Shown here: one piece after another, positions 11,685 through 61,610 of the stretch
How the letters are laid out: the number at the start of each line of letters is the position of its first letter
How positions within the stretch are numbered: the stretch's first letter is position 1
NCBI RefSeq assembly: GCF_026571515.1
Contig: NW_026860481.1
Span: 248,001 to 312,000 of the forward strand
Length of the DNA stretch: 64,000 nt
Direction: 5' to 3'
Source: Ruditapes philippinarum
Lineage: Eukaryota
Made by a program: the position numbers and the translations under genes
The notes under the pieces: generated by a model
What the model was told of the DNA's origin: nothing
Seen by the model: the letters and a program-made list of their open reading frames with translations, nothing else
Database searches by the model: none

Positions 11685-11884
11685 CAATCTGGTAACCATC
11701 ACTTTTCCAACGTTTGCATTATTGACGCTAGTTATCCGTCATAAAATGTCACAAGCTGATTTTGTATCAGACGGAATCGTAAGATTTAGCTGCTTACAAT
11801 CTGAAACTGCGGCAATGACGGGCTAATTCCACCGTAACTGTTGTTTATTACCGCCATTATGATGCTTACTAGGTATATGTAAGT
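11685..11884 (+). promoter_or_regulatory. Module copy D1: TATA-like + Inr-like core promoter, short first exon, splice donor
   Basis: CATAAAA at 11740-11746, TCAGAC at 11767 (~27 bp downstream), ATG at 11859, TAT|GTAAGT donor at 11879. All four are conserved in the paralogue at 28390-28593. Confidence 0.5.
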
Positions 11885-14800
11885 GTACTGTGCATACATC
11901 ATATCATATATTATTGGAATAGGCTTACTAATTCCTATTTAACTTTCAAGATTATTCGGATTCACAGAGCAACTTTTCTAGGCTAAATTCTCTGCAAAAC
12001 CAGTCTTTTTGTTAAAAGTAAATGACAGATACCTTGAAATGTGTTCTGTTTGTGGATATAAGTGCGTCCCTTTTCTTTTGACCTAGCATAGACTTAAACT
12101 GTAAAACACATCTATTTGTCATAGATCAATACATGGATCTCATCAATGCCACATATTTTGTAGCGTCACGTCCATTTGTGTAAAATGGAACAAATGTACG
12201 TTTAAAACCATTACTTTAATTGTCGTGTTGCAGAATTTTAATGGCTTTCTTTCCTGTGTGACCTTTTTACCTCTGTCACGTAAAATCCCATCAATATTCA
12301 TTACGTCTGTACAAATGTCCTCACTATATTTCTTTTATTTTGTGAATATAACCTAAGTTTTTTGACAGTTGTTTAATGTAATATTCTTAACATGATAAAT
12401 TACTTTTACATTATGTGAATTCAGTTGTAAAAATGTAGCTTTGAGACAAAGAGGTTACTTCGTGAGTGTTCAATTTATAATTTTGACATTTGCCAGCCAG
12501 CATTATAGAGCGTGGCCAGTATACACATATCTGCAGACTAAACTGACTGTATACTGGTGGGAACTAAAACTAATCTATTTCAGTTACAGCTGTGTATTAG
12601 TTAATAAAAACTTTTTTTTTGTTATATCGGTTTGGAATGAACTAAAAGTCCAAATGGCAATATACATTTGATTAATGCATTATACCTGTTTTATGACAAC
12701 AAAAAAAAAAGATGTGAAAAAAGAATCTGTTACTCGTCTTATTTCATCTAATGGATCATAAGACAGTGAATGATAAGCAATAAAATTTCTCGTTAACCGT
12801 AAAAAAACGGAACTTCAATTGCATGATGAAATATATAACGTCTGAAATAAATTAAGTGCATTAATGCATATTTGATAATTGGAAACGACTCACTAAACCG
12901 TTCTGGATGCAAACTGATGTTGCAGTTGACACATGCAATTACCTTTAATATATTACTATAGATTCATTTGCACTCAAGTCAAACAAAGTTTGTACAAATT
13001 AATTGGCAAACAGGTGGGAAAAAATGGACGAATATTGCTTTCTAATAATTTAAAGCAACATTTACATCATATAAATTGCCATGTACTCATAAAAGTATAC
13101 GATTATTTAAAAAAAAAATCTATAAAAACTGTACTTGTAGAAAAACACTTGGATACTTCTTGTTAACAAAAACACCCAAAATGAAAATCAGAATTAAGCA
13201 GCCAACAATATAGAGTCTGGTCATAGTAAATATCCTCCGGTCTTGCTGTTGGTATTTTGAGTGGCACTGTAAAACCAAAATACCCAAACGTTTCGTGAAA
13301 ATAAATGGCCGCAGAAGATAAAAGTGTAAATATCTGCTCAATTCCAAATTCTTTGGCAGGTTTTGATGAGTACAAGAGGACTGTTTACTTTAGAATACTG
13401 GTACAGCTCAAAAATGTATGATTATTATCAAATCCTCTGACCTTTTGTCTTTTTAGATTATCGTTAATGTTCGCAAAGTAAAATAAACTACAATAAAGAA
13501 CAAACACAGCAAAAATTCATTGAACCAATTGATATGAGATTGTACAAAAATATGATATATGTGAATAGTATATAAATCAGACATAAGAGGAAAGTAAAAA
13601 AAAACAAAACAAAAAAAAAACAAAAAAACCAAAAAGCAAAACAAAAAAAACCCCAAAACAACAACAACATAAAATTGTATGTGAATGACAATATCAATAA
13701 ATCAATTACAATCGCTAGTTTAACTTTTGGATAGCATTAAACATCCATAAATACGGTGTCTCGATTTTTTTCCATTTAATTTTCAACATAAAGACAATGG
13801 CTATAAAATGAAGTGAATCCATATGGTAAATAATGAAACCTTTTATTTGTCAGTTTATTTGATATCTGTACGTTTTTAAGCAATTTTTCTTTTATTAACA
13901 TAATAATGACTTTTCTTCGCTTTGTAACGAAACCACCAATTAATGTAAAAATAAGTATGACCAAACACCAATCGTATAAAGAGTTGAGCAAGATCATTCA
14001 CATTATTAAGAGATATTGCATAAACGAACCAATAGTTTCTCGATCTTACATTTCGTCTTGTCTCTCGGTTTCCTGCTTTTGCAATAACATTGATTCACAA
14101 AGAGAAAAAATAGACATATTTTATCAGAATGTTTGTGTGAATGTTCGTGTTTATGCGGTTTAAACTTTACAATGTTTTCTTTATAAAGTTTTTATTTTGA
14201 ACCAGGCGGTCAATATCCAACAATATATAAAAATATCCACAATAGTATGAAGAATGTTATATAATCATAATAATTATCATAACAGATTGACAAAAATGTT
14301 AATTAAATCATTAAATATATACTAATATTTATTAAATTTGTTTGCATATTTTAACTGTAAAATAAATTGTTATCATCAAAATATGCATACAACATACAGA
14401 AGATGTCACATGAATCTTAACCTTGATCCAAAAACATGATTGAAATTGTACATTTTAATAAAACTCTACAGTTTAATCACCTATCTATAAACAAGAAACA
14501 TTGTTGAAATGAAAATCAAACTAACATTTTTAAGTTTAAATAATGCAAATGATTAATTGACTGATTGATCATCACAAGACTTTTACATGAAAAAAAATCA
14601 TCGTCCTGAACAAAATACGCTTAACATTGCACTTTTAAATTTTTATCGAAAACATATCTTAGCCTTTTTGTGTATATCTTTGGAAGTGTTATTTAATTTC
14701 GTTATTTATATAAAGGTTCATGGATTTCGTAAACAATACTTGAACGTCTTGAGAAAAATACTTAAATAGAAGTATAATTATTTCAGAAAGGGTAATTGCG

Positions 14801-15760
14801 AAACAAGTAAAATATTTTTGTATAATTCCAAACATTAATTCAGTGAAATTATTATTTGTGAATTCATAAAAAATGCTTAATTTAAAATTGTGAGTGGTGA
14901 CAGATATATTGTCCTATTTAATGTAATCAATCATTTTATATTGGCATACATTGTTCAGCAATTTGCACTAAATGTTGTCATAAACCATAATTATCAAAAT
15001 CTAATGTTTTGAAACATTCATGTTGATACTGCGTAAAGATAATTACATAAAATATATTGCTTTATAATTAAATATTCAGATCGAAGTTGCAATTTGTGCT
15101 TGTAATTAGCTTTAAAAATCGTAAATTGTTGAAAAACTACACCACCTTAGCACGACAAAATGTTGTTAAAGCAGGTGATATAAAACAATAAAGATTGCCT
15201 TGTCAATGCTTCATGCTTTATTTATAATATCAATCGTCTTTCTCATTTGCATACAGTTTTCTTTTCATTAAAACATAATTATTATCGTTCGGTTAATCTA
15301 TTGCAGTGTAAGAAAAGATAAAGCTTGTGAAGAAATAATATTTAAGAAGAGTCGTGTTTCTTTAATTATTCATATCATAAAACTGTTTTTCATTTAAAAT
15401 TATTTTAGTATTGGAACAAACAAAGTTGCTATAACTACAACCTACAAAAGCATGGTATGCGAATTATTTCAAATAATATTCAAATGTAATTTTCAAAATG
15501 CCAATAACGAAGAAAAATAATAAACAAGTAGAAAATCAGTTAATATTTGCATGCTACATCAAAATGCATTTAATTTATTAGTATTGTGAATATCGATACA
15601 TATATATGCACTTTTATTCTACCTTTCGTAATGTTCGTTTTCAGAGGGATACTCAGTTCAATATGATGTTCTGGTTATACCTAGAATATATTTTGTCAGC
15701 TTTTGTATTATTCATGTTATTTATCAGTCATTAAAAGACTTGAGCTTGTTTTATGAGTAA
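11859..15760 (+). CDS. Speculative 3-exon 76-aa small-protein gene (11859-11878, 15080-15174, 15645-15760)
   Basis: Phase-compatible GT-AG joins give MMLTRYISKLQFVLVISFKNRKLLKNYTTLARQNVVKAEGYSVQYDVLVIPRIYFVSFCIIHVIYQSLKDLSLFYE*. The three exons fall in blocks conserved in unit 2, where the frame is broken. No homology recognised. Confidence 0.15.
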
Positions 15761-16884
15761 ATATGACTTGTATTGTATCATTAGTTCATACATTAACATG
15801 ATGTAAATGAGACAAGTACCAGAGTTTTAATACAGAAACAGTTTATATACTCGTATGTTTCTGCTCTGGTCGTTTTATTAACAATAAATAATGTAAGTGT
15901 TCTGATATAAAGAACACAGAAGCAAATCATCTTGATGAGATTATCAACTATTTTGCTTTGAGAATGTGACTTTTGCATTACAATTAAAATATACTACAAT
16001 ATATATAAAATACTTCTTTTTAAAGAGCGGATCATACCGATTACAGTCAATATATAACTAGTTCTACAAAGACTGTTTGTAATAAAAACATTAGATATTT
16101 TTAATGCACAAATGCTTGCACAAGCGGACAGTTCTGTATGCACCGACATAGCTAGATGTAAATAACGCTCAATAATACAAATGTTTTATAATAAAAGAAT
16201 ACTGCCATATCTCTTACCAAGATATATAAACAAAAATGTTAATCCTTTGTCCATGGTGATTACTAAAAAGAATATCAATTTAGGCAGTCATGTGGCTCAT
16301 TGAATTATCAGCAACTTGTATTTCTGCTTTGTTGATGGATTGATATCATGGCCAATTATCATCTGTTCATTTTCCATAAATAGATATTCTAAACATGATG
16401 GGATATAAACTCTGGTAATGCAATATACATTAAGATCTAGTCGGAAGGGCAACCAGTATATTTGCATGTACGTAATCTACAGTTATTATCATTCAAATTA
16501 AGCGTATCCGCTGTTTTATGTATGTCTAAATGACTTTTCAAACTGTAATTTTCTTAACAACGTTAAAAGGAAATTAATCATTAAAATGTCTTGCTTCTTT
16601 TGAATTATCTTTGTACCTAACTTGATTAAATAATTGTCTGAATTTGCATTTGAAAGCTTTTCTTTCGTCTGATACACAAGTTTCTTGTCTGGGGCTACTT
16701 AATTTGCCTTGAATCTCAAATAATTTCAATAACCTCAAATTATTATAGTGCGTTCCTATGTTGGAGACTTCGCTACTATGATTGGGTGGATGATATATTG
16801 AATAATAATCTGACAGTTTAACAAAAATAATCAATCAAAAACTTGTACATTATTTTAAAGAAAAATGCATAAAATGTATTAAAT

Positions 16885-17017
16885 NNNNNNNNNNNNNNNN
16901 NNNNNNNNNNNNNNNNNNNNNNNNNNNNNNNNNNNNNNNNNNNNNNNNNNNNNNNNNNNNNNNNNNNNNNNNNNNNNNNNNNNNNNNNNNNNNNNNNNNN
17001 NNNNNNNNNNNNNNNNN
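16885..17017. other. Assembly gap (N run)
   Basis: Run of N. Confidence 1.
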
Positions 17018-17109
17018 CGTCATTGTCATTATCATCATCATCAACCTCATCATAATCATCATTATCATCATCATAATCATCATCATCATCAACATCATCA
17101 TCATCATCA
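17018..17109. repeat. Imperfect (ATC)n microsatellite abutting the gap
   Basis: catcatcatcaacctcatcataatcatc... Confidence 0.95.
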
Positions 17110-17399
17110 CTTAGTGTCGTATCTTTAATAAGTTCTACAGGCAGAAAGTGTGAGCTTGTCATCAAATACAAACTATTGTTTACTCTTTGATTATAAGTGC
17201 ATTTGCGTCTGTCATGACCAATATAATTTCATATTACCTCATAATTTGTACTAGATTGCCGTGATATACATGCGAATACGGACTATGACAAAGTAACATC
17301 AAATATTTCTCCTTTTCTGCTTTTGTATTTGGTTACGATTCACAAAAGTTGAAGGTGAATTCACGTTAATTTGGAGTTTCACTGACCTGAGAAATTGCT

Positions 17400-17666
17400 T
17401 CATAAGTGTTATTGTATAATTATATTGCTTGAAAGATAATTATATCGGACATGTGTATCAAGACATACATACACAGGCATGTTTGAAATATTCTTAAATT
17501 GTAAATAATGAGTGAATAAAACATTTAATCTATATTTCTCCCTACTTAATTTCTACTTGTAAAATCTGCTTACTTTTCGTTTTGATTATGTATTGTAATC
17601 ATTATTTTATTGGACGAGGAGTTATGCTCAAGTCCGAATAAAGAAATAATTATTCTGTTCTGTTCT
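17400..17666 (+). mobile_element. Possible 3' fragment of a LINE
   Basis: Ends in AATAAAGAAATAATTA followed by TTCTGTTCTGTTCT, and homology to unit 1 resumes shortly after. The left boundary is uncertain. Confidence 0.35.
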
Positions 17667-20600
17667 ATATTAAAAAGAATTAATTAAGGTCAATAACACC
17701 AGCCTTTGAAATTAATTTTTAAATGATATTAAGCAAAAATTCATTAATATGTGTTACTTTAATCGAATATGGACATTATATTTATTAAGGATTCTTTGGT
17801 CATGTATGCTTTTAAGTGGACAAAATCCAGCCTCAATGTATTGTCTTCCGTATGGTAATTACTCATTAATGTGTGAAAAGTGACCAACAAAAGCACTCTA
17901 TTAGGTCTCTCTTATTTCTAGTCATAATAAAATATATAATTCATTGGTCAGTAAATCATCTTTATTCCTTATTAGTTTTCTTTTAGACCATATTATTTCC
18001 TACTTATTTCCTTTGGAGAGACAAGACACAATACAATAATAGGATCTATTTTTGTTTCAAACTAGTTTCATGCAAGAAAGAAACACTAAATGTACTCCGC
18101 TTTTACAACCTTAAATGATGATATTTTTTCTACGACTTAATTCAAATTTGTATTACAAATGTCGGTATTTGTCTCTTCCTGATCTTGTATATCATTTGAA
18201 TAGTTTTCCGGAAATATGCCCGAGCGCGATCTTTGTTTACAATCTGCAGTATGAATCGTGTTATCTGCTTTTATATATGTTTCACTTTATGTCTGATTTA
18301 TTTAACCACTTAAGCAGTTCATACTGTTTATAGCTGCTGGAAAAATTAAAAAAAATGTTTTAAATTAACTGCATAAAAGGATTATTTTAAATTTAATTAA
18401 ATTGTGATTTAAGATATACCGCGTACATATGGTGACTGATTATATTTGGAAAGTTAAATTTTCGTGGTGTGAAAAAAACATCATAATCACCGAATTTGTC
18501 GTGGGTACTCATTAACATTTTTTAACTATAAAGTGTACTGTCATGAACAAAATTAGAACAAATATTTGAATATTATCAAGGTCTGTGAAACATAGAATTC
18601 ATTTAATATATTTTTCCCTCGCTTTGCAAGTTTCATCACATAAATATAGTTCAGTACTTAGTGTAAAAACATGCAGCTGCGTATACCATATTTGTAGTAA
18701 AACTGGCAAAAGGAAGTAGCAATAAATAAAGAACGTGGCGCATAATTTATCCTGGCTATTTTCTATTCCCTCATACACACCTGGTTTTGGATAAAAAAGA
18801 AATGAAGATGGATGCGTTAAATGTGAAATATTTTTTATTTTGACCATCTGCTTTGACTATGCCCGTGTATATATCCTAACGGTAAACAAGGATAAATTAG
18901 CAGCGTGTGTCAAAAGAAAGTTAAAACTTTCTTGAAGATCATCTGGAATCAATTATTTATTGGTCCAATTTTTACTTTAACTTTTAACGTGACTGTGCTA
19001 GACATTTTTTAATTTACAACAAATACCAGAGTTTTTTTTAAACACTATCAGATCATGAATTTCAGTCTTTTAATATTCCAGTTGAGTTTTTTACCACCAA
19101 GTAAAGCATGGACAAAAGAATAAAATAAACTTATAAACAATATGAATTCAATAAACGCTAGCTTGACGTTTCAACAGCAGTTTTGCAACTGCATTATACA
19201 ATTTTAATTTTGGTGGCTCATCATTATAAATATCATACTAGGCTATAAATAAAGATTTTGTTAGGCCAATCATTAAACGGTATAATTGCCATTTGGGTTG
19301 ATTAAGATAAGGTTCATCAATATTTTATTTTGTACAAGAAATTATCATATTATACTATTATTGAAAATTCAAAATACTTTTGGGTCATTAAACCTCAGAA
19401 AAGACTTAAACACAACTCATAAATATACATGTTCGCATGAACAAGATGACAAATAGAAAAAGCAAATATTACTAGAATAAGTTGTTATTTAAAAAGAAAT
19501 AAAAAATCGAATTCGGGAAAATGATTAAACTTTTTGTAACAATAAAGTTACATAAAATAAATGGATTTTTTCTATTTATATAATTATGTATGTGTAATAC
19601 ATTTTTCTTTAAAACAGCAGCGCGCCAGCTTTACCTTATGTGAAATTGAAATAGGCTTAAAATGTTATAATTTATTAATCCGACCTACTTGCAATAAACA
19701 CCTGTATATAGCATTCAGATCGTTGGTCGTAACTGAGGGGAATTGAAGATATTAGAAACAAATGCCCCTGATTTACACTGTGTATGTGGTTAAAAAAATG
19801 TTTATGTTTGCTGAGCATTTTGCAATGTAATATCAATGCAAACTAATTAATTAGTCGGAACATGATGCGAAGATAATTTAATCCATTGTTCACTGTACTC
19901 ATTTCATATTACAACATCGCACAAATAAACAGTCAACAGGCCCGGAAGATTGTTTTAAATAAAAATAAAAGAACAAGACTTTAGTAAACATTAAATAGGC
20001 ACTGACCTAGTTCCCCGTGCACATTTGATATTCATCTTCGTAAACAATTTTCCTACAACAATATTTTTTCCTACAAAAACATTTATCATCGTAAAATCAA
20101 ATTGTTTAATTTTCTTTTACAGATTTCGGGAAAATTTACATCACGAACATGTTCATCAATCAATCATGTCATTATGCGAGGGAAAAAATCTACCACGATG
20201 ATAATAAAATTTGTTACTTAAAAAATAAATTGATCAGTTAACAAATACATGTATCATTTACAGTTACAAAAGATGGAGAACTTTTCGTAATGTCATTATG
20301 TTTTGTTTTTCTGTCACGACATAATAATGCATGACCATAATGCGAACTTCCCATAGCTTTTTTTATAATGCAAGGAAATTGAATACAATGTTACACAATA
20401 ATGAATTATCATATGACCATTGTCCCCTATAAGGTCGTAAAGATATTTAAGTTTGCTTTAAATGACTTGGGGCTTCTAAACGGCACTGCCTTGCCAATTG
20501 TTACACAAGAAGCGATATTTTATCAGAAAAGGCATGTAAATACCTATTCAATATTAATCATGTCACCCGGAGAGCAAAGTAAAGTCTTTATTTTATATAT

Positions 20601-23481
20601 TTTAGGTAAAGAGGTAACTTTCAAAAAAATGGTCTGTCATATTCACATGAAGACAATTGGCTTTTGAGTATTTTATAAAACACGATACGAAGTAACAACC
20701 GAACTGTTCTTTGTTTGTTTCTATAGCATCATCATTTTAATTTAAAACTTAAATGTTACCAGTGTTATTACATGCTTCAGTGAGCGAAGTTGAATTCAAA
20801 TTGGACATATTTAATCAATGAATATGTTAATTGTATGTAACAGGTAGGCAAAGAACGTGCGTTAAATCTGATCTCTTTCAATATATAATTGACGTACAAA
20901 CGTAATGTTACCAATATTTAGCAAATTGTTAAAGCAAATGTAAATGAAAGTAAATCAATCAAATATTAGGGCATTTTTGCAATATTTTTAAGGTGTTGAC
21001 TCAAAGAAACTTGAAATTTTCGACTCGTGTCACCTTATTGTAATAAAAAAAAACTTGTTGCTCACTGCAGTGTCCACAGCATTTTTTGGTTGATTTATAC
21101 CAAAGACGCATTAAGGAAAATTTGGTCGGATATTGTAATGTCACACAAAGATTCATTATTTTCATGGCAGAACCCATATAATAATTTGCTATGCAATTGG
21201 TCTTGAAAAAAGAGTGACTTAGTCCATTGAGACTGTTTCTTTATATCGTAAATTAAATAAATTGTCCACTTAACATTAATTCGCATTGTTATCAATACTT
21301 CTGTATGGATAATGCATTTGATGCCCGTCATATTTAAGCAAACAGTATTTTTGAAAATCCAGTATAGTGTTTTTTTAATGATGAACTGTCACACCACTTA
21401 GCAAATGTCTGTTTTGCTCCCAAAGTGGAATGCATTCCCTTTCAATACTGTTTTTGGTTATTGTTTTTCTTGTCCTGTATTATTAACATACAAAAAATTT
21501 TAATTATCTAAATTTGGGCACCAAACATAAACGACCCAAAATAAATTAAAAATTTGATAAAAACAGCCGTTTAAAAATTTTTATAATAACCCTTGAAACA
21601 TCCTTTTAAGGGGTCCAAAAATATCTGCTCACAGTTCATACGCATTACAGTTCCGAATTTGATAATGTCTATTGTCAGATTTACATCATATTTTAAAAAT
21701 ATAAAATGATATAGTAGGGTAATATTTCACAACAAATGAATATTTTATATGATTCCGTCTGCTATATATATTAATTGTAATATTTCTTTTATCCTATTCA
21801 GACCATTTCGTATATTACTGTATATACCATGGATCGAAGAAAATTTTTAATTTTATGGATAAGCTGTAAGCTGTTATATCAAACAGAGAATAAACCACCG
21901 TCTTAATCGAATAACATACATAAGTAAGTGTTCCCAGCAGGCCTTCTTAAAGGCGGCCAACTTAAATCAAACAACATATAAAACATAAAGTTTGAAAATA
22001 TTATTACATATCTTGGACACATAAAACGGAAAAATATGAAATATTAATAAAGAAATATACTCAAAATTAGATTGCCAATCGATATGTGTGCCTTTTAAAG
22101 CCCGATTGTAGTTAAAAGCGTACACAGGACTTTTTGAAGGTTTTTAGCCACAATTAAAATGATTATTCTGGAAAAAAAAACAGATATGAAAATAATCTTA
22201 AAAGTTCCATACAAGTTACTGGCGTATACCTACAACAAACGGTTTAAAATTATCGACAATATATTTTTAGTCCCGCCATTTAAAATAAAAATAGGGTAGT
22301 CCTTTTTAACCTACTTTGTTTAATCCATTGTTGGCATTTATGTTCATAACGTCTTTTTATGTTTTATTACAATTTCGCAGATTATTTTCTTTTATTAGAT
22401 ATTTGATTAGTGGAATCGTATCTTACTTGGTAATGGCCTACTATTACTATATATCGAATAGAATAATCTAATTTAAGTTACGGTGTTTAACAAGTAAGAT
22501 TATTTCTATATATTAATATGAATCACAATACCTTTTTAGAGCCTAAGATCAAACATATTGCTGAACCTCACTCGTTTTGTACTATCTGCAGCTTTGACGT
22601 TCGAAACATAAACATGTTAAGGAAATTACACAACTCTATTCCGCTGTAAGGCTTGGCATAATTTCATTTTATTGGCAAACTGGAATTTTAGCACATCTTA
22701 CGGAACATACCGAACGTTTACGAACGATTAGTATATCTTGGCACTGACCGTATTGACATGTTAATAAAATCTAACAGTAAGACAAAAATGTTAGGAGATG
22801 CCTCTAAAGGTTTTTACAAGGAGGATATTCAATTACCTTGACAAAGAGATAATTCATAGTCTCTACTTATCTTATGAAATTATGTTTTATATGACACAAG
22901 TGAAATGATATGACAGGTATTTGCATATGAACGACATTTCCCGTCAACAATATATTTTCATGTCTAATTCTACTTAATATGCATTGATTTCTGGTTTGTT
23001 TGCTATATTACCAATTATTGCAATTATTGTTGCTGAGGAAATTGGAAATTAATCTAATCTCTAAAAATTAATATGGTTGTTTAGTAACATTGTTGATTGA
23101 ATATATAACATTATCTATAGTAAAATATAGTCTAAAAGCAAAAATAAACGTTATTACGTTATTTATACCTTAGATTGAATATGTGTTCATACTAATTTTG
23201 CAAACAGTAATGAAAACAGTAAATACGAAATAGAAAAAATAATAACTTATCTTTGTAATTTTAATTTATGTTAGTCTTGTTTGACTCAAAGTGTGAACTT
23301 CTACAAATATTAAAAGTGATCTCATTTGGTGTTCCATTAGCCTTAACTTATCATTAAATTAACTTATTATTACGATGTTTATATTATTTATCATATGTAA
23401 AGTTTTCACATTTTGAGATTTGATGTGTCTTGTAAAGATCTTATAAAAATGAGTCAGCAAATAATATATTTGCCATAATCT

Positions 23482-28312: not shown

Positions 28313-28384
28313 AAGTCCACAAGATCTTTATTTTAGAAACAGTATTGTACTAATCAAAATGTTTTTGTGATGATCATACTTTTC

Positions 28385-28593
28385 AAATGGCGATCTGGTA
28401 ACCATCACTTTGCCAACTTTGTATTATTCACGCTATTTATATGTCATAAAATGACACAAGCTGGTTTTATCAGACATAACTCCTCGTTAACTATCGTTAG
28501 ATAGGTTGGCTGTTTACAATATGAAAGACGGGAAAATTCCACGTAATTGTTGTATATTACTGTCATTATGATACCTACTAGGAATACGTAAGT
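28385..28593 (+). promoter_or_regulatory. Module copy D2 (promoter, first exon, donor)
   Basis: CATAAAA at 28445, TCAGAC at 28470, ATG at 28568, TAC|GTAAGT at 28588; clear alignment to 11685-11884. Confidence 0.5.
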
Positions 28594-29789
28594 TTACGTG
28601 AATAAATTATATACTGTGTTTGTTGAAAAATATTATTCTATTTTGCTAACAAGATACTCATACTTATACGCTTCAGTTTGAGTCTATACTGTATGATCTT
28701 ATATCCATATTTGCCTATAATAAGAAAACGCGATTATTTGTTAATATTTTCTTACATTTTAATATTTTAAGTATTATATCATTAAGTTGATATGCAAATG
28801 TTATTTTATTTAAAATACCGGCTCATTAGACATATCTAAGTTAATATTAATTTTTTTGCTTGTGTTTATATAAGTTTGTATAAACTATTTTCGTCAACGT
28901 AAATGAATATATAATAAAAGAATGAATTTGCCTAATTGCATTTTAAAAACAACCTATGGCACTGAATAAAATAAGTTCTTATATTTCTGGACAATTCACT
29001 CATTCTCAAGAATTGAACTGACTTCGGGTCAATTTTTGCTATATCATTTTTGAACGAAATAAAATCGAACCATTTAACTATGTGAAGTAACACACCGCTC
29101 ATGTTTAATAAAAACAACTAACAAACGGGGAAAAAACGAGTGCACCTGTAACCTTTTTATTATTTCTTTTTATGACAATTTTCTAATGAATAAAATGACA
29201 GTGGCAGTAACTGATTAACAATAAAACATTCTCGTAAACCGCCATGACGATACCTCAATCAATCGAATGTTAAATTAGTGTCTGGAAATTTATTAAGTGT
29301 ATTTATTGATTAATTATAATTAAAAGCAATTCATTTAACCGTTATGTGTGCAAAATGATGTTGCATTTTGCACCTGTAATAACTTTTGATAAGATAGCTG
29401 TATAAATAACAACGAAGTAGTTTGTACTCATATCAAAAAAATGTTTACCTATCTATTGGGAAACAGGAGAAATAAATTCATGGCAAGCACTTTCTTCTAA
29501 TTTTATATCCTAATATAAAGCGATATTTTGATCAAATAAATCGCCATGTACGCAACATTATTCAGTTTCAAAAAACTAATGATAAAGAAAAATGCTTTAA
29601 AAGTTGAGCTTGAAAAGCACCGTTTTCTCTTACTCCTAAGCACTTTCAATTACATTTCGACTGTTAGAAACAAGCAATTATGTGAACACGTCAACATAGC
29701 ATTAAGACATTAATATCATTAACAAATTTTTATTTTGTCCTCAGGAAAGGTTTTTGTGAAAACAAAATTTCAACCTACATACTTTCCTT

Positions 29790-30045
29790 AGATCTGTCGA
29801 AGGATGTTCGTCAATTTAACTTTGAACAGCATCCTAACCATTTATCTTGAAAACATTGATGAAATAAAGCAGGGAAAGTTTCTGTTAACAAAACAATGCT
29901 ATATATATATGCTTAAAAAACCCGAAATAGTTTGGCTCTGATGAAGTATATTCGTCAATTTCGCTTTGAACAGCATCTCCTACCAAGCATCTGCAAATCA
30001 TTGATGAAAGAAGGCTTGGATGATTTTTGTAAACAAAAACAATAT
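29790..30045. repeat. Degenerate ~143-bp tandem dimer
   Basis: TTCGTCAATTT..CTTTGAACAGCATC..ACCA..CATTGATGAAA occurs at ~29807 and ~29951. Confidence 0.7.
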
Positions 30046-39689: not shown

Positions 39690-39872
39690 TGAGTACCTAC
39701 CAATGTCATGCACATTCAATCACATTTGATCTCCATTCATAACGGCGACATGGTTTCATCTTTAGCACGTTTTGATAAAAAATGCACTAAAATGACTTAT
39801 TCTGGAGCCGATGGATAACAGTACAAACATGTGTAAAACTAACGGAAACACTGGTTTGATTTTGACAAGAAT
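39690..39872 (-). other. Module copy D5 (inverted paralogue of 53650-53816)
   Basis: The reverse complement shares GTTTCCGTTAGTTTTAC.CATG and TCGCCGTTATGAATG.AG with 53677-53790, with a donor-like GTAGGT/GTACTC at ~39700. Confidence 0.55.
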
Positions 39873-40964
39873 ATAATACTTAATATATAATTGCACGAGT
39901 AGTGTGTCAAATATTATATCAAATAGGGACAACTTGAACCTGGGTGGGTTGAGGATTTGATGTTATTAAATGTTTGTAATATTTGTTGTCATTGATGTCA
40001 AAGTTATAACATTGAGATGGACATGAATTTTGCCGCTCTATTTTTATGTTATAATATTAGGATGAAAGATTTAATAGGCTAACATTTTTCATTTCTCATA
40101 ACATATTTATTTATCTTTGTTTTTAATTTAGTTGCTAACATGGTATCAATAAATCACAGCAGAATTGAGTCTTGAATTTATATACTATATTGTAAAGTTT
40201 ACTTACTTAATAACAATCAAATTACTGACTCTATTATTACATTATTCCTTGTCATATCTAGTCGACTAGTTTTATGCTCAAGGTTAATAATTCAATATGT
40301 TTGTCGTCATATGAAATATCATGTTCATTAATCTGCAGTTGTCTGGTGCACAATGCTGCATATATATTAAAATTTATAACTAAGACATTTATATTTCTTT
40401 CAAGAGTTGTATTTCAAGGCTTCACATTATCAAATATTTATATATTTGTATATATTTGGTCACATGAATTTGTTATTCATTTGAAGCATTATTTGCACTG
40501 TCACTAAACCATATCAATTCCGGATATATCACCTGCCAAATTGTGAAGACAATAATATATTATATAAAATTATGTTGTAATAAATAAAACTTCGTACACA
40601 TCGATATGTGAATTTATATTGCATTTTACATATATGTATTATTAACAACCTGAATGTTGTACTTACAAATATATATTATTAAATTATACTATTTTTTAAA
40701 CAAATTGTTTTAAACAATTAGGGAGTTTTTAGATTGGTTACTTCTGCCGGAACCGCTTGATAAAAAATAAGTTTATCTATTTTATTAACAAAGCAAGGCA
40801 ATAAGTTTAAAATAACTTGAGAAGGAAATATATTTTTTGTAAGAGGAGATCCGTCAAAAATGAAATAGAAGTGTTCTCAATGTTTCAATGAAAGTAAAAA
40901 CTCATTGACTGGCACGCTGTAATTACGTAGTAATTGACGCCTTACATAATGCTGTTTTTTGTTG

Positions 40965-42647: not shown

Positions 42648-43638
42648 TTGTTTTGTTTTGAATGATCTGCAAATGATGGAAAAGCATTGTTCATGCATTA
42701 ACTTTTATTTGTGCCTGAACGTAAGCTATTGCAAAAGTGTACTTCGTCATACCATATGTGCATGGATTCGTTTAAGGTAGTTTTATGAAAAAAATAGTTT
42801 GTTAAGTATCTTAATTTATGTTAAATTTCTGATGTTGTTTATCTTTTTTATCATTAACTGTGAAGATATATTAGAAGTGCTTGCGGTTTTTAAACCAATA
42901 TTTATTATTATCTTGAACAAATTTCAATAGTTTATTCTTTTATTCCTTGCTTTATTATTATCTTTTCATAATAACGGTAATGTCCTTTCTGTTTTATAGT
43001 CAACTAGTAATATACAATGCACAATTTAACTTTTCGTTCTTTACAAAATGTACGTACGTAGTTATTATCCTATTACAGAAACCCTATATATCACTTTATT
43101 TAATTCAGGGCTTTACTGAAAATTAGAAAAGCTTCAATGGCACTGTGAGCAATTCTTAAAGCGTTAGAATACTATGAGAGGACAAGATAATGCTTTGATA
43201 ATGCTTTAAAGTATGATTTGTTTCATATATTTTTAATAACAATAAATTGTGTGGCACACAAACATATTTTGAATTCGTTACATAAATCTGTTAATTCAAA
43301 TTTAATTCCGCCAAACAAAGCAGAAAAGAATCATCGACATTGTGTCAGATATCAACGTCGACCTTTTTTCTAGTAACGGTTTCTTAATAAACAATAATAA
43401 TTTAGAAAATTTATATTAAACCGGTTATTACAAAGGTTAACAATAATTCCAAAATTGTTTTACGTCGAAGAAACGAAATTGCATTTTTTCTTTAGACGTA
43501 GTCAAGAGTAGTTTTCTTATAATTATCCTAATCATTTATCTGATCAAAAGTATTACTAAACTAATTATAATATTAACATGATTTTAAAAACGTTACAACT
43601 TTACAAGTATATTACGTTTTTGTTGTCATATCCTGACC

Positions 43639-44125
43639 ACTTACACGGAATATGTAATGTCCTCATTCGCGAAACTTGGTAAATAATATAAAATGTATTT
43701 TGTAGGAAAATTTAATTATATCAATCAGGTAAAAGTCATAACTAACAGGAAAAAAAGATCATATCGAAGAACATTTTTACGAAGTATTTCTTTGAAACAG
43801 CACCATCAAGTCGATTATTTTACGCTATTAAAATCATACAAGGGGTAATTTCTTTGCAAGAAATATGTTCCAAAATACCTCAATGCCGAAGGTACACATT
43901 TAACATTGAATTCTTTTTATATCATCTAGCTTTACATCACAGCTTCTACGAATGCCGAAAATAAATTGAAGCCATAAATTCAATCTGATCTTACGATCTG
44001 GCCTGGGAATACTTTGAGATAGATAAATCCATAATTTACTATCCCGTGACACTAATTTGACGCATGCAAGACAAATGATCCACGTGGGTCGAATAATATA
44101 ATTACATATAGTTAGCAACATGAAA
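43639..44125 (-). other. Module copy D6 with upstream conserved hairpin block (44043-44088)
   Basis: 43965-44115 aligns with the reverse complement of 53200-53345 and with 47110-47212. 43835-43875 matches rc 53500-53545. Minus-strand donor GT|GTAAGT at 43644-43639. Confidence 0.6.
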
Positions 44126-44428
44126 TATTTGTGATATTTTCCATTGAAAAGATTACATGAAATTCTATAAGAATTCTTTGGTTTTCCAATAAGTTTGATA
44201 TGACCATGTCCGTTTGTTAATTCGTTTATTTTTAAATATATAAAACGTAAGTGTTGAAAAAGGGCCCTGGTTCATAAACTTATATCATTTAATTGTCTTA
44301 CTAGCTGTCTGTCACTAAACTTAGACTAAAAAATCCATGACAGAAAATCTAAATAATTGTATCCTTTTCTGAAATTCCTGGGTATACTTTTCTGAAATTC
44401 CTGCTTAAAAGAAACTAATTAATTACAA

Positions 44429-52714: not shown

Positions 52715-53199
52715 ATTCCTAAACCGATATTTTAAAAACGTTTTTCATCAGAGAACTGTGAATATGAAATTTTGTGAAATTCCTATAAAAAGTTTTGTTT
52801 AATGCTTGTTAACATGCGAAATACCTAATTGACACTATTTTGCATTTTTACTTTCAAGATTATATATATATAAGCATGATGAGCTGTTAAAGTGTATTAT
52901 CTTCAAATCACATTTCTGTTCCTTGCATATATGGCAATACGAAACACACGTTTTGGTAATAGCTAATAATTTAATTTAATGGAAACAAATTTAAAATGAG
53001 AAGTGCGTAATATAATTCCAGAACTATTTAATGATCATTTTCTATGTACATGTTTAATTCTTTAATTAGTATGTTTCTTTATTTCTTTATTGCATGATTT
53101 TCATTTAAATGTTCTACCTTTCATGTATAGTTTATGGAAGCATAGAATGCATCCATGCTAAATTTTCTCAGCGGCATCAAATCGTACAATAGTTCATGA

Positions 53200-53816
53200 A
53201 GTAAACTAGGTTATTATATTATTCTACCCACATGGCTCATTTGTCTTGAATGTGTCAAATTACTGTCATGGTGTAGTAAACATCGGATTAATATATCTCA
53301 GATAATTCCCCAAATTGTTTGTACAATAAGATGGAGCTTCATGATTTCATTTGTTTTGGTCTTTCCAAAAAACTCGGTGTTATAATTGACATAAGTTTTT
53401 AATGGATTCACCCGTTTTGTGATATTTCGGAAGCCTTTCCCTGCAGTGGAATCAGTTACGGTTATACCGTTAGTTGTCTTTGAAGTTTAACTACTTTTAT
53501 TTCTGAACATATTTGTAACAAAGAAATCAATTTAGCACATTGTATAAAACAGTCAACTATCTATAACAACATAATGACACCTGAATTATTAACACGAAAT
53601 TGTTCATTACAGGTTTTGTCAATGTGACGGAACTCTACTGAGATTAGGAGTCACTTTTCTTGCATATTAGACTGGCGTTTCCGTTAGTTTTACCCATGCC
53701 GGAAATTTCATCTGCATTTGGGGTGTCAGAAAAGTCGCGTACTGTACAATAGCATACTTAGGATGACACAATTTCGCCGTTATGAATGAAGTTGTAATTC
53801 ATAGGCTGTTGTAAGA
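53200..53816 (+). other. Module copy D4 with upstream hairpin block (53224-53276)
   Basis: Homologous to 43.6-44.1 kb (-), 39.7-39.9 kb (-) and 60.7-61.6 kb (+). CGCCGTT-ATG at 53782 is followed by AGG CTG TT|GTAAGA at 53811. Confidence 0.55.
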
Positions 53817-53908
53817 AAATAGTTACGGTTTTATTGACATAAATTTAGATTGAAAATAAAGATAAAGAATTTAAAATAAAATGGAATATGGTAGGATATT
53901 CAAGAAAA

Positions 53909-54009
53909 AATATCTGACATATGTTTGCGGTTCGGATCGGAATATCCGCAACTCGGTCACCCGCCCATGGGCGGTAACTCGGCAAGCCTCGCAACATATG
54001 ACAGATATT
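53909..54009. mobile_element. Solo, internally deleted palindrome of a Crypton-like element
   Basis: Arms AATATCTGACATATGTTTGCG / CGCAACATATGACAGATATT; GC-rich interior with core CTCGGCAAGCCTCG (53978-53991). Confidence 0.6.
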
Positions 54010-55403
54010 ATTATTAAAATAAAATGAAATTCCTAAAAATATCAAATCTATTAACATTCAACGGAAACAATGTACACAATATTATAATAAAGAAATATAC
54101 TTTGAATTAAATTGTGAATCGATGTTTGGCTGACATTCTAAGCCTAATTTGAGTTATCGGTTTGATTTTTTAAACCGCTGTATTTTCTTCTTTCATAAAG
54201 AAAGCATTAACTTTTTATATGACAAAATCGCAATACTGTTTCGCGATTGTGTTCAACAGAATTGAAAATATATTTGTATATGATTATTCTAAATGTTCTA
54301 GTAGTCAAAATATTATTTGTAGCGTCACATTTATATGGAATTAAGCTGAAACAAATCATAACTAAAAGCATTGTCTTGTCTCTAATATTATCTTAACATA
54401 TTAGGAATTGCTCATACAGACACCAAGGCTAGACATTTTATAATTTTCAATAAAACCTAGGATTAAACAAAGTGATATACAGGGTTTCTGTAATAGGATA
54501 ATAATTATTTATGTATGTTCAGCAATATTTACAATTGTAATGTGTGCTTTTCAAAGATGTTTATTCATAAATTGAAACAGTAAAATTATACCTTAAACTT
54601 GACTACCTTTCTTTTAGGAACAATTTAGATATCAAACAAAAATACCCTATATCAGTACAAATATTTGATTTAGTACTAAAAACAACAATAATAGGTATAA
54701 AAAAAAGAATAAAATAACACCAGACAGAATATAGTAGCAAAGGAAACATGTTACATGTTTTATCAAGTATATCGTCTTACACACAATATTTCGCATGCAT
54801 TATGATTCTTCACAATGTTCTTATTAAAACAAACTTACACATAAACAACATACGGAAAGTGAATGAAATTTTGGTAAACAGAAATAATCGAAATAATAAA
54901 CAATCTTGCTTATAACAATGTAATTTGCGTGGTTACGTTGTTGTACAAATATAGATCTCCTTCTATTAATAAAGGTTAATAAGTTTTAAAGGTCGATAAT
55001 GCTTGAGAAATGCTTTCATTTCTTTTCTCAAAACCGTTTTAAATAAGTTATTTTAACATTATTGAACACAAGTCTGACATTGTACATGATTTTAAAAATT
55101 GGATTTCTGAGATATAATGTAACTTAAAAAATGATTTCGATACTATATACATGTACTCGTATCTGTCAATTTGTATTGTTAATGATTTTTTTAGCTAGCT
55201 ATACATGACTAATTGCCATGTCAATCATAATTACTAAGACTGATTATTTTGCCATATGTAAATAACAATAGTATAACAGATAATAGAAAGAGCTTATGTT
55301 GCTTATTAATTTATAATAATTGTTTTATAACATGTATACAGAAATAAATGATAGGAGTTATCAGTTGTACAAAAGTGTATCTAAATTTAGATCTGATAAA
55401 ATA

Positions 55404-55492
<89 letters not shown>
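55404..55492. repeat. (AG)n microsatellite
   Basis: ~44 AG units with one interruption. Confidence 0.99.
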
Positions 55493-55496
<4 letters not shown>

Positions 55497-56760
55497 CTTG
55501 TTATCCAATCCAGTAAATTTTTATTTACTCTAAGACATTACAACTAAACAACTTTATGTTATGAAAGCTCCATGTTTTTTTTGTAAATTAACAGGATACT
55601 TTTGACGGATGTTTGGATATTTTCTAATTTCTAACATTAGAATCAATATAATACTGACAGATAAAATAGGAAAAATAAAAGATATTAGGTAATACCTTGC
55701 TCCCATTGTGTTTAGTATAAGTCATAAATAAGAAAGTAGTCCTTTTATTGTAAGTCTCAATTATTCAGTATAAAATAGATTTATTTCACAGTTTATACCG
55801 TAATTATATTTGAAATTAATATAATAAATTGACATATTTCAAATGAATAAATGAGACCTTTTCCATCTCAAACTTCTTACTTTTTGAATCATTGTGTTTC
55901 AGGTGTCTAAACAGAAATTTTTTAACCCAAACATCTTAATATTTAATGATGTTTAGTCTGCAATACAGCTATTGTTTTATGTAGTCAACTTTTGAATGAT
56001 TGAGTTATAGTTTGAAGGTTAATGTATGGCTAATTAATTAAAGGAAAAGGATAAAACATTTCTATGACAAGCACAAACATTTATAAACTCTGAACAAAAA
56101 CTATTTTTAGGAAATTGAGTAATGAAACGTTTGATAATATTTGAAGTACAATAAATTGCTTTTAAAATTAACAAGATTAAGTCTTAATTGTTAAATATCT
56201 AAAATGTTGTTAGAAGTATATTGTTTAGGTGTCTTTGGTTTTTACTCTTGTTTCACAGCTATTTATCTAATGCTAATATTTGTTTTGGTGTCAAGTATCA
56301 TTACTGTAACAAGTTTCGTTATAATAAATATACGAGGGGTTATCCAAAAATTCGTGGACTTTTTAAATATCTCTTAAACGTCAACGTGTATTGTAATGAA
56401 AATTTATCAGCATACATTTTAGAATATTAATAACACATTTTGAAAGGAACAGTTAATTGTGTCAATAAATAATGATTTTATATTGCTTTTAAATAAGCAC
56501 ATACACGGCACCCGGCGCACGGTAGAAAAGCGCAGTAAGTCATCTATATTTTTTGCTAAAAAACTAAAAAATTAACGTAGAAAACCCGCTGAACATCGCA
56601 TGTTTCTTCTATGATGTCATTTAAGTAATTCTTTAAAATAATGGACGTCATTTCCGTTTATTTGTGTTGATATCGCTAGAAACGCCAGACGCCTTTATTG
56701 TTTACAACGGGAAAATGACGGACACGCGGTAATTAGAAAATCGCCCGATCGTAAACAATC

Positions 56761-56907
56761 ATAATTTTTTGTTGTAATTTGGAAATGACACCTACAAAAA
56801 CGTTTAATAAAAATCAGCAGACAACCAGAGAAAAGAAAATTTCACGATCATTAGTGTTAAAATGGCATAAAAAATTTAGTGATGGACATTACCTTGAGAA
56901 GCAGTAA
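56761..56907 (+). pseudogene. Mariner transposase N-terminal HTH fragment
   Basis: IIFCCNLEMTPTKTFNKNQQTTREKKISRSLVLKWHKKFSDGH resembles the mariner N-terminal pattern IKFC..LG.TPT.T......SRS.VF.WHKRF.DG. Confidence 0.8.
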
Positions 56908-57033
56908 CCGTCATTGACTGCGTAACGTTGAAGCACAAGTTGTAAGTTAATATTATGACGCTGACGCCAATAACGTTTTGGAGTGCGCCGCTGTCGCCGA
57001 CATGTGTTAATGTAAAATTAAATATTATGTATT

Positions 57034-57411
57034 AGAAAGAGCACCGAAACACGAGGCTATCTGATTTGTACGAGGGGGCGTAGCCCCCGAGTATTAATCA
57101 GATTGCCGAGTGTTTTGGTGTTCTTTCTCTTTTGTATCATAGTCAACATGAAAGCAGGTTCCCTGTTGTCACAATATGAAACCCCGGCAAAAATGAACCA
57201 ATGAACGAACATCTGAATATGACATCTCTGTCGCTTTCCCTTTCTCAGTCGTCACAGTATGTAAACCCCAGCAAAAATGAGCCAATCAATGGGCATGCTC
57301 TGGAGTGCGGGTAACTAATACCCGCACTCCAGTTAACGCACTGTGCATGTATATGTTTACGATTTAACCCTGACACATTTTCAACAGAAAGGTCTCCAAA
57401 CTATGATACAA
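57034..57411. mobile_element. Small Crypton-like non-autonomous element nested in the mariner
   Basis: Palindrome at 57034-57128 centred on CGAGGGGGCGTAGCCCCCGAG, then inverted repeat TTGTATCATAGT (57132-57143) / ACTATGATACAA (57400-57411). Internal 14-bp hairpin at 57300-57332. Confidence 0.75.
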
Positions 57412-60400
57412 TGTAATGTTAGAAGCTACTCACATGATGTTTTCTGTGTTTATTTCTTATTAATTCTTCTAAGCAGTGTAAGAATTTCAAATTAATATCT
57501 CAAATATATTTTACGCAACAAAGAAAGTCCACGAATTGTTGGATAACCCCTCGTATATCGCTGTTCTATGATATATTTCAACATATTTTCAATTCAATTA
57601 TAAATAGCAATGTGTCAGTAGAAATACAAATTTTGTTTGAAAACAAGCCCCTGTTCTATAAAATTACGAGACAGTACAATCGTCTGTCACTGACTCTTGT
57701 CGTTATAGTTGTAATCGTATTACAAATGCTGTAATGCTTTTCTTAATCGTATTGTATTGTAAACTTATATTTATATTGTCTTAATTATATTGAACAAGTT
57801 TATAGTTATATTTTCTTAATCATACTTAACTGGCCATGTCTAACACAAGTTTCTAAATCTTAGTCTCAATATAATATCTGCAATTTTAGGAGTATTGTTC
57901 GCCGGCTGTAAACTTTGATATATATGTTTGGTGTTGATTCATATATGCAATGTTATTGCGTTCGGTGTGTGAGAGCAACCAATTCATGATGTATTTAATA
58001 CTGTTGAACAGTTTTTTCACTTTTAAATTAATTAAAACAAAGACAAAATAGTAAGTGTACAAAAAAAATTCACAAATACATGCTTTTAATAGCGTTTATT
58101 GATTTTAGTTTTCAATAGTTATTTTGCATAAATTAATGACATTTTTATGAATTTCATGAATTGTATCTATTATTCAGAGTCTTGTCACGAAAGATTTATT
58201 AACAATGTGCTTTATTTTTAAGTTCAATTTCAAAATGTATTTTTTAAAGAATTCACAACACCTAAAATATCATCATCATAAAGAACCGCAATATAACAAT
58301 CAATTTTAATATTTTCCAGCAATTCACTTCACATAACATTATTGTCGTTATCTATCACCTACTATTCCACGGTTGCGTTATTCAGGACACTACATTATCC
58401 ATAAAGATACGGAGACAATTGCTAATGACAGCGCTGGTCCGATTGATTACAAATAAAGTGTCGTTTATAATAAAATTACTACTTTGATATCAGTCTTAAA
58501 TAATGGTCAGGTTGTTAAAAGAAAAATTCGATGTAAAGAAGATCAATGCATATTATATTGACATGAAGTTTAATAATGCTTGATATATAATGATTTTAAA
58601 ATTGATTTAATACAATTATCAAAAAGTTTATTTCTTTTCACATATTATATATATATATATATGTGCTGTTTATGTGTTTTGTTAGTTTTAACACATAGTG
58701 TGGTGACGAGAGGGTGGAAGAAGCCAGGTATCCGATAAGTGCCCCCTCAATACATTAAGGGACTATCCATTAACTAGCTTAAAAATTAAATATTGTGAAT
58801 TTATTGTCGACATACGTCTACATTTTGCGTAGCCAGGAATTTGAGATCATTAATATATTATATATTTTTTGTTTTGTACGAATTACCCTATACAATAAGA
58901 GAGACACAATATTACCTACACAGTAAAGAAAAATTTCTTAAATATAAATATAACATGTGTGCAAAATAATTTTCTGATCATTCGCCAACTCCAGAACAAT
59001 TATTCTTATTGTGAAAAATGACCCAAAATTGAAAATGCAATAAAATATGGCTATGAAAAGTACAACATATGATTTTCAATTTATTTTAGAGTTTATTTCG
59101 TAATTACCGTTTGCATATCTATCTAAGCTCTACCTAATCTTTTTTTAGTAAAAGTAGTAAACTTAAACATGCCTTTTATGTTTAAACATCAACATCAGCG
59201 TACATTTTTTGTTTAATGTAGTATTGTTTTAATGTTCAGAAATTATTGCTAAATTAATCATCATTAATGTCTCTGCAGTTCAAATAAAGGTGGCTTTTGT
59301 ACCAATCTAAAAAACATAGACCATTTATCAAATTTAGACAGAAAATTATGCATCTGACGGGAAATATCTTTCATATGCTAATGCTGGCAATCATGTCAAC
59401 GTGCTACATAAAAAGACAATTAATGAAGTACAGGGTTTCAATGAATAATATCCTTTTCGGGTTGTTCTAAAATTTTCCGTTTGAAAGACAATAATGAAGA
59501 GACATTGTGATTTATAAAAATGGATGCTTCTAACAGATTCATGTCCCCAATGCAATACAATTAAATATTATATTATAGTCCTTCCAATTGTCTCGCTATT
59601 TATGTTTTCCATCAGAATATGGTCTGGACATTTATTCAAAATCTGTGGAAGATTAGTTAAATTTAGAATTAAATAACAGAAACCATTTTTCTTACGAAGC
59701 CAATTTTAATGCTGTCTCGCATTTTGAGATTGCTTATCCTCTTAGCATTGTGCATTTCTGTCAACAAAACGTATAGCTGATGGCAATAGTACGTTTAAAG
59801 TAATGAGTTTAAAGTTACGCAACACATGATCAGTGCTGTGAAACAGCAGATGAATTGATCAGTATTAAGCAATGCATAAACATTGCAGACGAAATTATTA
59901 ACGATAATCGCGGACAATCTCAAAGATATGCATTTATAATAGGAAAAATTAAATGCTTTCCAAATTAAGGTACACTTTTCTCGTTTTAATTCGAAAAACT
60001 ACATGGTGAATAAATAAATTACAAAATTGATTGTCATTATCAACATTTAGGCAATCTAAGGTAAATCATAGACATCAGTATGTCCATGTGTGTTTTGAAA
60101 ATAAATAAATAAATAAATACAATAACTATTTAAAAATCCATATCGAAAATTATGACAGATATTAGTTATTAGTTCTTTTTAAAGTGAGTATCTTCAACAT
60201 TTCACTACATTTAAACGAAAAGAAGATATTATTTGCTGAAACAGTTGTTATATCAAATGAAGATCATTACCATTGTAAATATATAGAACTAGCTTTTCTT
60301 ATCACATTTAGCTACGTAAATTGCCTTTCTGTTCCGGTAATTACAAAATGTATATAAATGATGCCTGCACAAAATATATAAGTAATGAAATCTACTGTAG

Positions 60401-60699
60401 TGCTGACAAATTGTGAGTGTAAGTGAAATGAACATACATAATTATGAATCTCTAGGGACAAATTGACTGAAAAATTAATTGATTCATTGGACATGGCAGT
60501 TACACGGTGCGTGAAGATGATATATTGCATCAAAGTTTTAACTGTTGCTTTACAAAACAAGAGGTTCTTTAAAGAAACGTCTTGTATTTTTATGTTAATA
60601 TGAAAAGATACTCTTTAAGAATAAGTCGTTATTCTCAAGTTATCAATTGCAAGTGTTTAAGATATAATGACATTTGTTTACACAGCTATTTCAAACACA

Positions 60700-61603
60700 C
60701 TTGCATTTTGCGAAGTAATGGCATAGTTTTATTACATAACTCGATACAAATTACTACCCACATGTGCTTATGTATTTGTACATTGCTAATAATATAAAAT
60801 ATACTGATTTTTTCTTACAGTTTAGCAGCTGAAAGGTTTAATTTCGTTAGAAACACACTGTTCTGTATGTATACAATTAATTTTCCCTTTAAATTGATAG
60901 GTGATATATAGAATGTTTAGTAGTCATCTTAACAATATAAATCAATAGTCTTTTCTAAAAAACGTTCGATTATAGAAATAAAAAATATCTACTTAATGTG
61001 AACATTCTGTTCAATTAAATATTACTTGTTAAGTTATATATTAATATGTAAGTGCATATGGTATGATAATCTGAAAAAATCATATATAAAAAAAAATTAT
61101 ATCTTAAATGTTTAAGCTAACATTAGGAAAATATAAATTTAAAGTGAATTTGAATCTTAATGCTATAAAATCTTAGAATATCGTAGATCAATTGGTATTT
61201 GCATATTATAACAACAGAGAAAGAAATGACAAATTGAATTCTATTGATTTAAATGCGGACACGTTAAAACTTTTTTTAAATTAATCAAATATCAATTGAA
61301 TGACACAAAATGTCCAAAATATCCATTCAAACGATAATTTATATCCGTTACTGTGATATCTCAAAGAAAGCTGTTTATGATTTTAGATTAAACTCTTAAT
61401 ATAACCGTTCCGGTAGGTTGTATTAAGCGTGCAATGTTTCTGTCATAAAACAGAAGCTAATTTGTCTCATACATTATAACAAGACTCATTTGATATAAGT
61501 TAGAATACGTACTATGCCAGACGAATTACCATGGTAACAATGTTTCCAGTGTTTCTCCTTAATTAAAGTTTATGATAGTGATATAAAGGTTTATCTAGTT
61601 AGT
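60700..61603 (+). other. Module copy D3 (degenerate hairpin block at ~60755; promoter/exon block at 61415-61603)
   Basis: CTACCCACATGTGCTTAT (60754) matches 53224. TTGTATTA...TGTCATAAAA..AAGCTAATTTGTCTCATAC (61418-61472) aligns with D1/D2. Donor-like GTTAGT at 61598. Confidence 0.5.
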
Positions 61604-61610
61604 TTAGGCA

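Follow-up and report, generated by a model that had tools for sequence, protein, structure and literature searches.

Do promoter-like modules scattered over a single locus amount to an undescribed gene family? The question is raised by a stretch of 64,000 nt from Ruditapes philippinarum (NCBI RefSeq assembly GCF_026571515.1, contig NW_026860481.1, positions 248,001 to 312,000 of the forward strand), which we call the window. An initial annotation recognized six modules of about 200 bp in both orientations (D1 to D6), each read as a promoter, a very short first exon and a splice donor, and together as one dispersed family. Judged from their alignments, the six form two groups, D1-D2-D3 and D4-D5, with D6 only the positional partner of D4. 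The first group, family I, has five recognizable copies: D1, D2, D3 and two further ones at 15.7k and 31.2k. We regard the locus as genuine but unremarkable, an outcome of segmental duplication that carries a modest regulatory signal, and do not see in it an established new system. The description as promoter, first exon and donor is plausible for the D1-D2-D3 family; a single family, a bridging role of D3 and a phase-2 peptide did not hold.

Kinship of the modules and the duplicates that carry them

Relationships were measured by local alignment against 300 dinucleotide shuffles for 105 pairs, which gives the z values used here. D1 and D2 are homologous (74% identity over 290 nt, E 2e-46, z 53), D3 is homologous to both (z 7.7 and 7.1), and so are D4 and D5 to each other (z 19). 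D1, D2 or D3 against D4 or D5 does not rise above the level of chance (z -1.5 to 0.2). Cross-group values range from -1.5 to 3.1, and the best such pair, D2 with D6, reaches p 0.013 among the 105 pairs. D6 is not significantly similar to D4 or D5 (z -0.8 and 1.0). Leave-one-out profiles built from five modules each found D1 at E 0.016 and D2 at 6e-6, whereas D4 came no lower than E 0.62 and both D3 and D5 lay at E>20; D6 was never recovered. With cross-group homology at chance and the profiles failing for D3 to D6, the single six-member family cannot be upheld. D3 had been seen as the link between the subgroups, but its supposed D4-type block is the 7-mer TCCGTTA, found 5 times with 4.4 expected. 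The weaker traces claimed at 48.9k(-) and 50.4k(-) gave no match with the profiles or in pairwise comparison; 50.03-50.37k(-) is a copy of 4.57-4.90k instead. A GTAAGT at 21925 was tried as a bridge between the families and rejected, its similarity to family I being marginal (p 0.013 uncorrected) or located elsewhere; its downstream flank matches that of D4 (score 93).

The motif GTCATAAAA followed by TCA(G/T)AC occurs exactly three times (11738, 28443 and 61442, in D1, D2 and D3), as first described, with 0.02 occurrences expected, though the pattern was derived from the same three copies on which it was counted. The donor-like hexamers are likewise present, at 11879, 28588, 61598, 53811, 39700(-) and 43644(-). 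The 15.7k copy is related to D1 and D2 with z 7.8 and 15.9 and the 31.2k copy with z 6.5 and 11.0, so that z to D1 and D2 from the other members spans 6.5-53. In D3 the aligned GT is at 61589, and the GTTAGT first described at 61598. A weak trace of D3 is seen at 3097-3247, in addition to the decayed homologue in Table 1.

The modules had been called dispersed units. Self-comparison of the window reveals old duplicates of ~6-11 kb, direct and inverted, whose blocks are 60-80% identical and colinear, and the modules are pieces of these large segmental duplicates. Duplicates B and C each carry a second, older module copy (15.6-15.9k and 31.15-31.41k).

Conservation and coding potential

In the five-way alignment of family I the invariant positions are the GTCAT(A/T)AAA core, AGCT, TTT and the G and T of the donor. 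The aligned GT is present in all five copies, in four of them as GT(A/C)AGT, a pattern that occurs in 1.7% of 41-nt windows. The distance from motif to donor is 166 nt (15.7k) and 158 nt (31.2k), compared with 141 nt (D1) and 145 nt (D2). Since the two additional copies were not known when the motif was proposed, they provide an out-of-sample test of the donor; they are mutual paralogues, and the test therefore counts once. Around the donor, 13 of 14 bases are the same in D1 and the 15.7k copy (p 0.023 uncorrected). Within the B/C alignment, identity over 200 columns peaks in the D1/D2 module (11675-11888) at 86.5%, where the alignment as a whole averages 73.4%; permutation in blocks of 1, 10 and 25 gives p = 0.001, 0.005 and 0.022. 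This stretch is richer in GC, and G/C positions overall are less conserved in the alignment. The peak suggests constraint.

Constraint on a peptide is not what we see. The reported phase agreement was reproduced, with ATG-to-donor stretches of 20, 20, 26 and 29 nt in D1 to D4, every one in phase 2. However, the D1 and D2 peptides are equal in length and therefore count as one observation, and three independent phases agree by chance in 1 of 9 cases. The combination of TTATG with a donor behind it is rarer than chance (8 found, 12.9 expected). Within the 20 nt, D1 and D2 differ at four positions, each of which alters a residue, in-frame stops occur in D3 and D5, ATGs earlier than the proposed start are contained in D1 (11815, out of frame), D2 (28521, out of frame) and D3 (three), and TTATG/ATG is missing from the aligned place in the 15.7k and 31.2k copies. 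No codon periodicity at p<0.03 was found in ungapped blocks of at least 45 nt outside long interspersed nuclear elements (LINEs), while four of six LINE blocks were positive; 45 of 245 indels between duplicates are multiples of three. A Pfam scan of 150 of the 171 listed open segments returned none at the cut-off, and five matches at E 0.03-0.04, all far below it, were dismissed as chance level. The signal-peptide pattern has five matches in the window, two outside recognized mobile elements (59709+ and 13224-); these two open reading frames (ORFs) were discarded because no paralogue of either scored better than decoys. Nor did a hydrophobic frame antisense to D1/D2 gain support against decoys beyond the DNA homology of the two modules. 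Open frames noticed by eye behind the acceptors at 20123 and 59279 were rejected as well, the AG being absent from the paralogues. By eye, no cysteine-rich segment among those listed recurs at homologous places, and no pre-miRNA hairpin among those listed is common to paralogues.

Transcription and competing explanations

Four RNA runs from four studies (X6, X8, X12 and X17; 4-25% sampled) were aligned at 85% identity to 26200-40950, a stretch that covers D2, the 31.2k copy and D5 and leaves out D1, D3, D4, D6 and the 15.7k copy. A junction from 28587, proposed earlier as a check, is absent among the 15 listed of 60 joints. A further 1113 loose ends lie outside this listing, and therefore low expression or splicing to an exon beyond the stretch could still be present. 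In the 20 bins from 28660 to 38499, depth is zero in 13 (X8), 16 (X12) and 11 (X17), and X6 has a thin background in all 20; in the bins of D2 and D5 read depth is confounded by repeats. Reads accepted at 85% identity pile up on an element that we take to be SINE-like (short interspersed nuclear element; ~110-1500x); the 31.2k module and most of duplicate C attract no such pile. A search of sequencing runs with 28300-38290 listed no RNA run; 25-33% of its words occur in five runs whose type is not stated. In X6, five reads join 29444 to 38166 with five extra letters in between, possibly from a haplotype with an 8.7-kb deletion, another paralogue or an A-rich artefact.

We tentatively favor, at somewhat less than an even chance, the view that family I is a duplicated promoter with a short non-coding first exon, in a decayed or narrowly expressed tandem family. 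Its observed basis consists of the duplications, the homology of five modules, the invariant core with its aligned GT and the above-average conservation of D1/D2. RNA polymerase II promoters would have been copied together with a short non-coding first exon and its splice donor. The CATAAAA, which we take to be a TATA variant or a posterior-Hox/Cdx site, might position initiation near 11769 and 28472, and a leader exon of 110-116 nt would be spliced at 11879 and 28588. Unequal recombination may first have produced the inner duplication (D1-type and 15.7k-type), then the outer B/C duplication, with inversions and mobile-element insertions following. If so, the locus would join the known birth-and-death tandem loci, here in a bivalve-like genome and recognized by its duplicated promoters; this would not be surprising, would help annotation and would offer a natural series of promoter copies.

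Several observations weigh against a promoter with a leader exon. No joint from 28587, 31402 or 39701 is among the 15 listed, and these ordinary RNA-seq runs show no pile-up of starts in 26200-40950; the depth of the 31.2k bin is zero in three of the four runs and 0.27 in the fourth. With a generic donor matrix, the module donors score modestly (rank 75-1084 among 6810 GT sites). The D1/D2 profile match on the extra copies ends before the donor, so that donor homology there depends on the global alignment. Locally high identity could also stem from gene conversion, and a repeated block termed block X (16536-16755) is nearly as conserved as D1/D2 (84.5%). Downstream of the modules we identified neither a coding nor a terminal exon that is conserved. 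CATAAAA with an initiator-like TCA downstream resembles the TATA/initiator type of focused promoter, D1 having the box at -29. In mouse, TATA boxes that work are placed between -32 and -29, and a box located downstream of -28 is as a rule without function (PMC1779604), so that, with the start assumed, one of three copies fits; D2 (-27) and D3 (-25) fall outside, and the 15.7k and 31.2k copies have lost the initiator-like TCAGAC.

The lack of start pile-ups, and of module junctions among the listed joints, would also suit duplicated intergenic or intronic DNA in which enhancer-like patches, or simply alignable remnants, survive and donor-like hexamers are incidental. The conserved patches hold what are presumably homeodomain, GATA and octamer-type sites. 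Other blocks are conserved about equally, the TATA spacing drifts among copies, GTAAGT occurs 32 times in the window, and GTCATAAAA is enriched away from the modules on both strands (9 found, 2.2 expected). However, a donor-type GT was kept in five aligned copies through two rounds of duplication and conservation is highest on D1/D2; we consider such DNA the main rival, less likely than the promoter with a leader exon. A mobile origin, either as an old non-autonomous transposon or as sequence captured by a Helitron and found at many places in the genome, might be suspected from copies in both orientations, a block repeated about seven times and a region rich in mobile-element remains. But block order is colinear over 6-11 kb, reads at 85% identity do not pile on the 31.2k module as they do on the SINE-like element, and among 147 inverted repeats the 25 longest include none that delimits a unit, which leaves a transposon with a slim chance. 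Fast-evolving small-peptide genes, with the ATG-to-donor stretch as first coding exon, are the least probable of all: phase 2 in D1 to D4 speaks for them, positive selection could hide codon periodicity, and the B-to-C spacing of ~16 kb resembles CRP-I cluster one (PMC10138031), yet the substitutions, stops, earlier or missing ATGs and unmatched ORFs given above largely refute them within the window.

There is also some resemblance to known clusters. Variable exons of the UGT1/PCDH type are large and protein-coding and are spliced to constant exons; unlike these, family I units measure ~110-165 nt and look non-coding, no constant exon was seen, and none of the listed joints showed splicing from them. 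Like the UGT1, GCNT2 and PCDH clusters (PMC1885805), family I has several homologous promoter/first-exon-like units facing one way (all five on the plus strand, which fails once D5 and D6 are included). Family I might be a series of alternative promoters with their leader exons, as in UGT1 or protocadherin loci, spliced to shared exons downstream of the window: the five modules have no downstream exons of their own in the window, and such splicing would show only among the 1113 loose ends outside the listing. On the other hand, kilobases of flank were copied with each module, as any segmental duplication yields, and the 31.2k copy is essentially unread in the four runs; we therefore think this improbable. 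Five leaders feeding one shared gene would give the locus more weight, as an invertebrate parallel to vertebrate variable-first-exon clusters. Equally improbable to us is a live array of homeodomain-responsive promoters whose non-coding leaders splice to one gene body beyond the window; if true, it would be a molluscan cluster of variable promoters through which the place and time of expression of a single gene diversify, not its product. In mussel, CRP-I and myticalin genes have short non-coding first exons and lie in tandem clusters mixed with pseudogenes (PMC10138031, PMC12294457); CRP-I cluster one holds 35 genes and pseudogenes in ~540 kb (PMC10138031). The anatomy of family I, predicted from the letters, would fit a short exon 1 confined to the 5' untranslated region, although the RNA runs on 26200-40950 showed no such transcript, and here too tandem duplicates ~15 kb apart stand among decayed copies. 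Unlike in the mussel clusters, no conserved signal-peptide, propeptide or cysteine-array exon between paralogues was found. Because coding exons are missing, family I belongs neither with the mussel peptide clusters nor with the variable-first-exon clusters.

No description of such a module was found in the literature searched, which does not show that it is unpublished; nor did that literature yield a presumed connection of mussel foot-protein promoters with AbdB/GATA factors. Scans for exact family I or II motifs in metagenome, viral and prokaryote genome contigs gave no match, as expected for animal DNA. With regard to spliced-leader RNA genes, what we assume to be an Sm-type site is found within 120 nt of none of eight donors, and an Rfam scan gave no spliced-leader-type match and no credible family. 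No tRNA genes were found in the window.

Second duplicated segment and surroundings

Table 1. Features of the window (positions from its first letter)
Feature	Position	Strand	Remarks
D1, family I	11632..11904	+	GTCATAAAA 11738, TCAGAC 11767, ATG 11859, GTAAGT 11879; heads duplicate B
D2, family I	28343..28612	+	GTCATAAAA 28443, TCAGAC 28470, ATG 28568, GTAAGT 28588; heads duplicate C
15.7k copy, family I	15615..15904	+	GTCATTAAAA 15727, GTAAGT 15893; unnoticed before
31.2k copy, family I	31146..31414	+	GTCATAAAT 31245, GTCAGT 31403; partner of 15.7k; unnoticed before
D3, diverged family I	61376..61603	+	GTCATAAAA 61442, TCATAC 61467, ATG 61572 with in-frame stop
Decayed D3 homologue	17187..17323	+	z 9.7; unnoticed before
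D4, family II	53657..53816	+	ATG 53782, GTAAGA 53811; no significant likeness to family I
D5, family II	39695..39871	-	homologous to D4 as far as ATG, then diverged with in-frame stop
D6	43639..43750	-	flanks match those of D4; module itself not significantly like D4/D5
Duplicate A, partial	2751..9093	+	colinear with 16.7-21.8k
Duplicate B	11609..22998	+	holds D1 and 15.7k copy
Duplicate C	28320..38544	+	colinear with B (4142 aligned columns, 73.4% identity); holds D2 and 31.2k copy
Inverted duplication, left arm	38299..44168	-	holds D5 and D6
Inverted duplication, right arm	53142..59488	+	holds D4
Partial copy of 32.3-33.1k / 17.2k region	60245..61620	+	holds D3
Block X	16505-16835, 22803-22998, 32635-32945, 38299-38544, 60773-60996		one more at 59253-59492, opposite strand
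Block X, partial copy	2751-2914		
LINE reverse transcriptase	23521-26064	+	uninterrupted 847-residue frame; nearest database relatives 58-59% identical
LINE reverse transcriptase, broken	62309-63998	-	~70% identical in DNA to 23521-26064 copy
SINE-like pair	38609-38832, 39423-39649	+, -	facing each other ~600 nt apart
Elements with TCCG microsatellite head	40966-42680, 51532-52720		156- or 161-nt internal tandem repeats
Two nested inverted-repeat elements	44429-45494, 56325-57561		strong internal palindromes 45232-45375, 57040-57115
1.05-kb direct repeat pair, recent	5565-8455		97% identical; encloses ~800 nt with 68-residue ORF at 6757
Degenerate tandem array	184-1021		unit ~62-64 nt

D4, D5 and D6 sit in a second duplicated segment, for which sequence comparison points to no relation to family I. 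A SINE-like insertion lies ~50 nt downstream of D5. The GTAAGT of D6 pairs with the ATG region of D4 in a three-way alignment and with its donor only in a non-significant pairwise one, so there is no stable alignment. A conserved block in three copies (43932-44168, 47067-47253 and 53142-53385) is found ~400 nt upstream of D4 and D6; its third copy has no recognizable module behind it.

Some observations concern the duplicates themselves. Paralogous minus-strand copies of GTCATAAAA at 12697(-) and 29176(-) are followed 150 and 154 nt downstream by GTCAGT, a spacing that matches family I and may be due to chance. A block conserved in A, B and C (5040-5282, 18631-18881 and 35933-36161, plus strand) lies between an aligned AG and an aligned GTAAAC. 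With 243, 251 and 229 nt its copies cannot have one frame in common, and it is a candidate non-coding internal exon; the copy in C (35933-36161) has little RNA read depth. Block X occurs about seven times in both orientations, one pair being conserved nearly to the D1/D2 level. Six copies contain a related core (ATGCAAAT in three, variants in three), which we presume to be octamer-like. An open frame of 86 residues in block X (16577-16834, minus strand) gave phmmer E values of 4e-13 and 1.4e-5, which were set aside: they are sums of weak matches, as single repeats score only 20-24 and 26-28 bits, and the proteins matched consist of tandem repeats of the fibronectin-III and immunoglobulin types, two unrelated folds.

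GC content per kilobase is 24-36% across the window, and its only long ORFs are the two LINE reverse-transcriptase copies. The names SINE-like and MITE-like (miniature inverted-repeat transposable element) for its repeats are our assumption, and the two elements with a TCCG head presumably resemble Helentron-associated MITEs. Taken by themselves, these repeats would suggest a bivalve source, probably a mussel. The direct repeat pair at 5565-8455 looks like a small LTR-type (long terminal repeat) element inserted into duplicate A. The palindrome 45232-45375 has one sub-threshold Rfam miRNA match. Most RNA reads, with many opposite-strand joints, are drawn by the facing SINE-like pair at 38609 and 39423.

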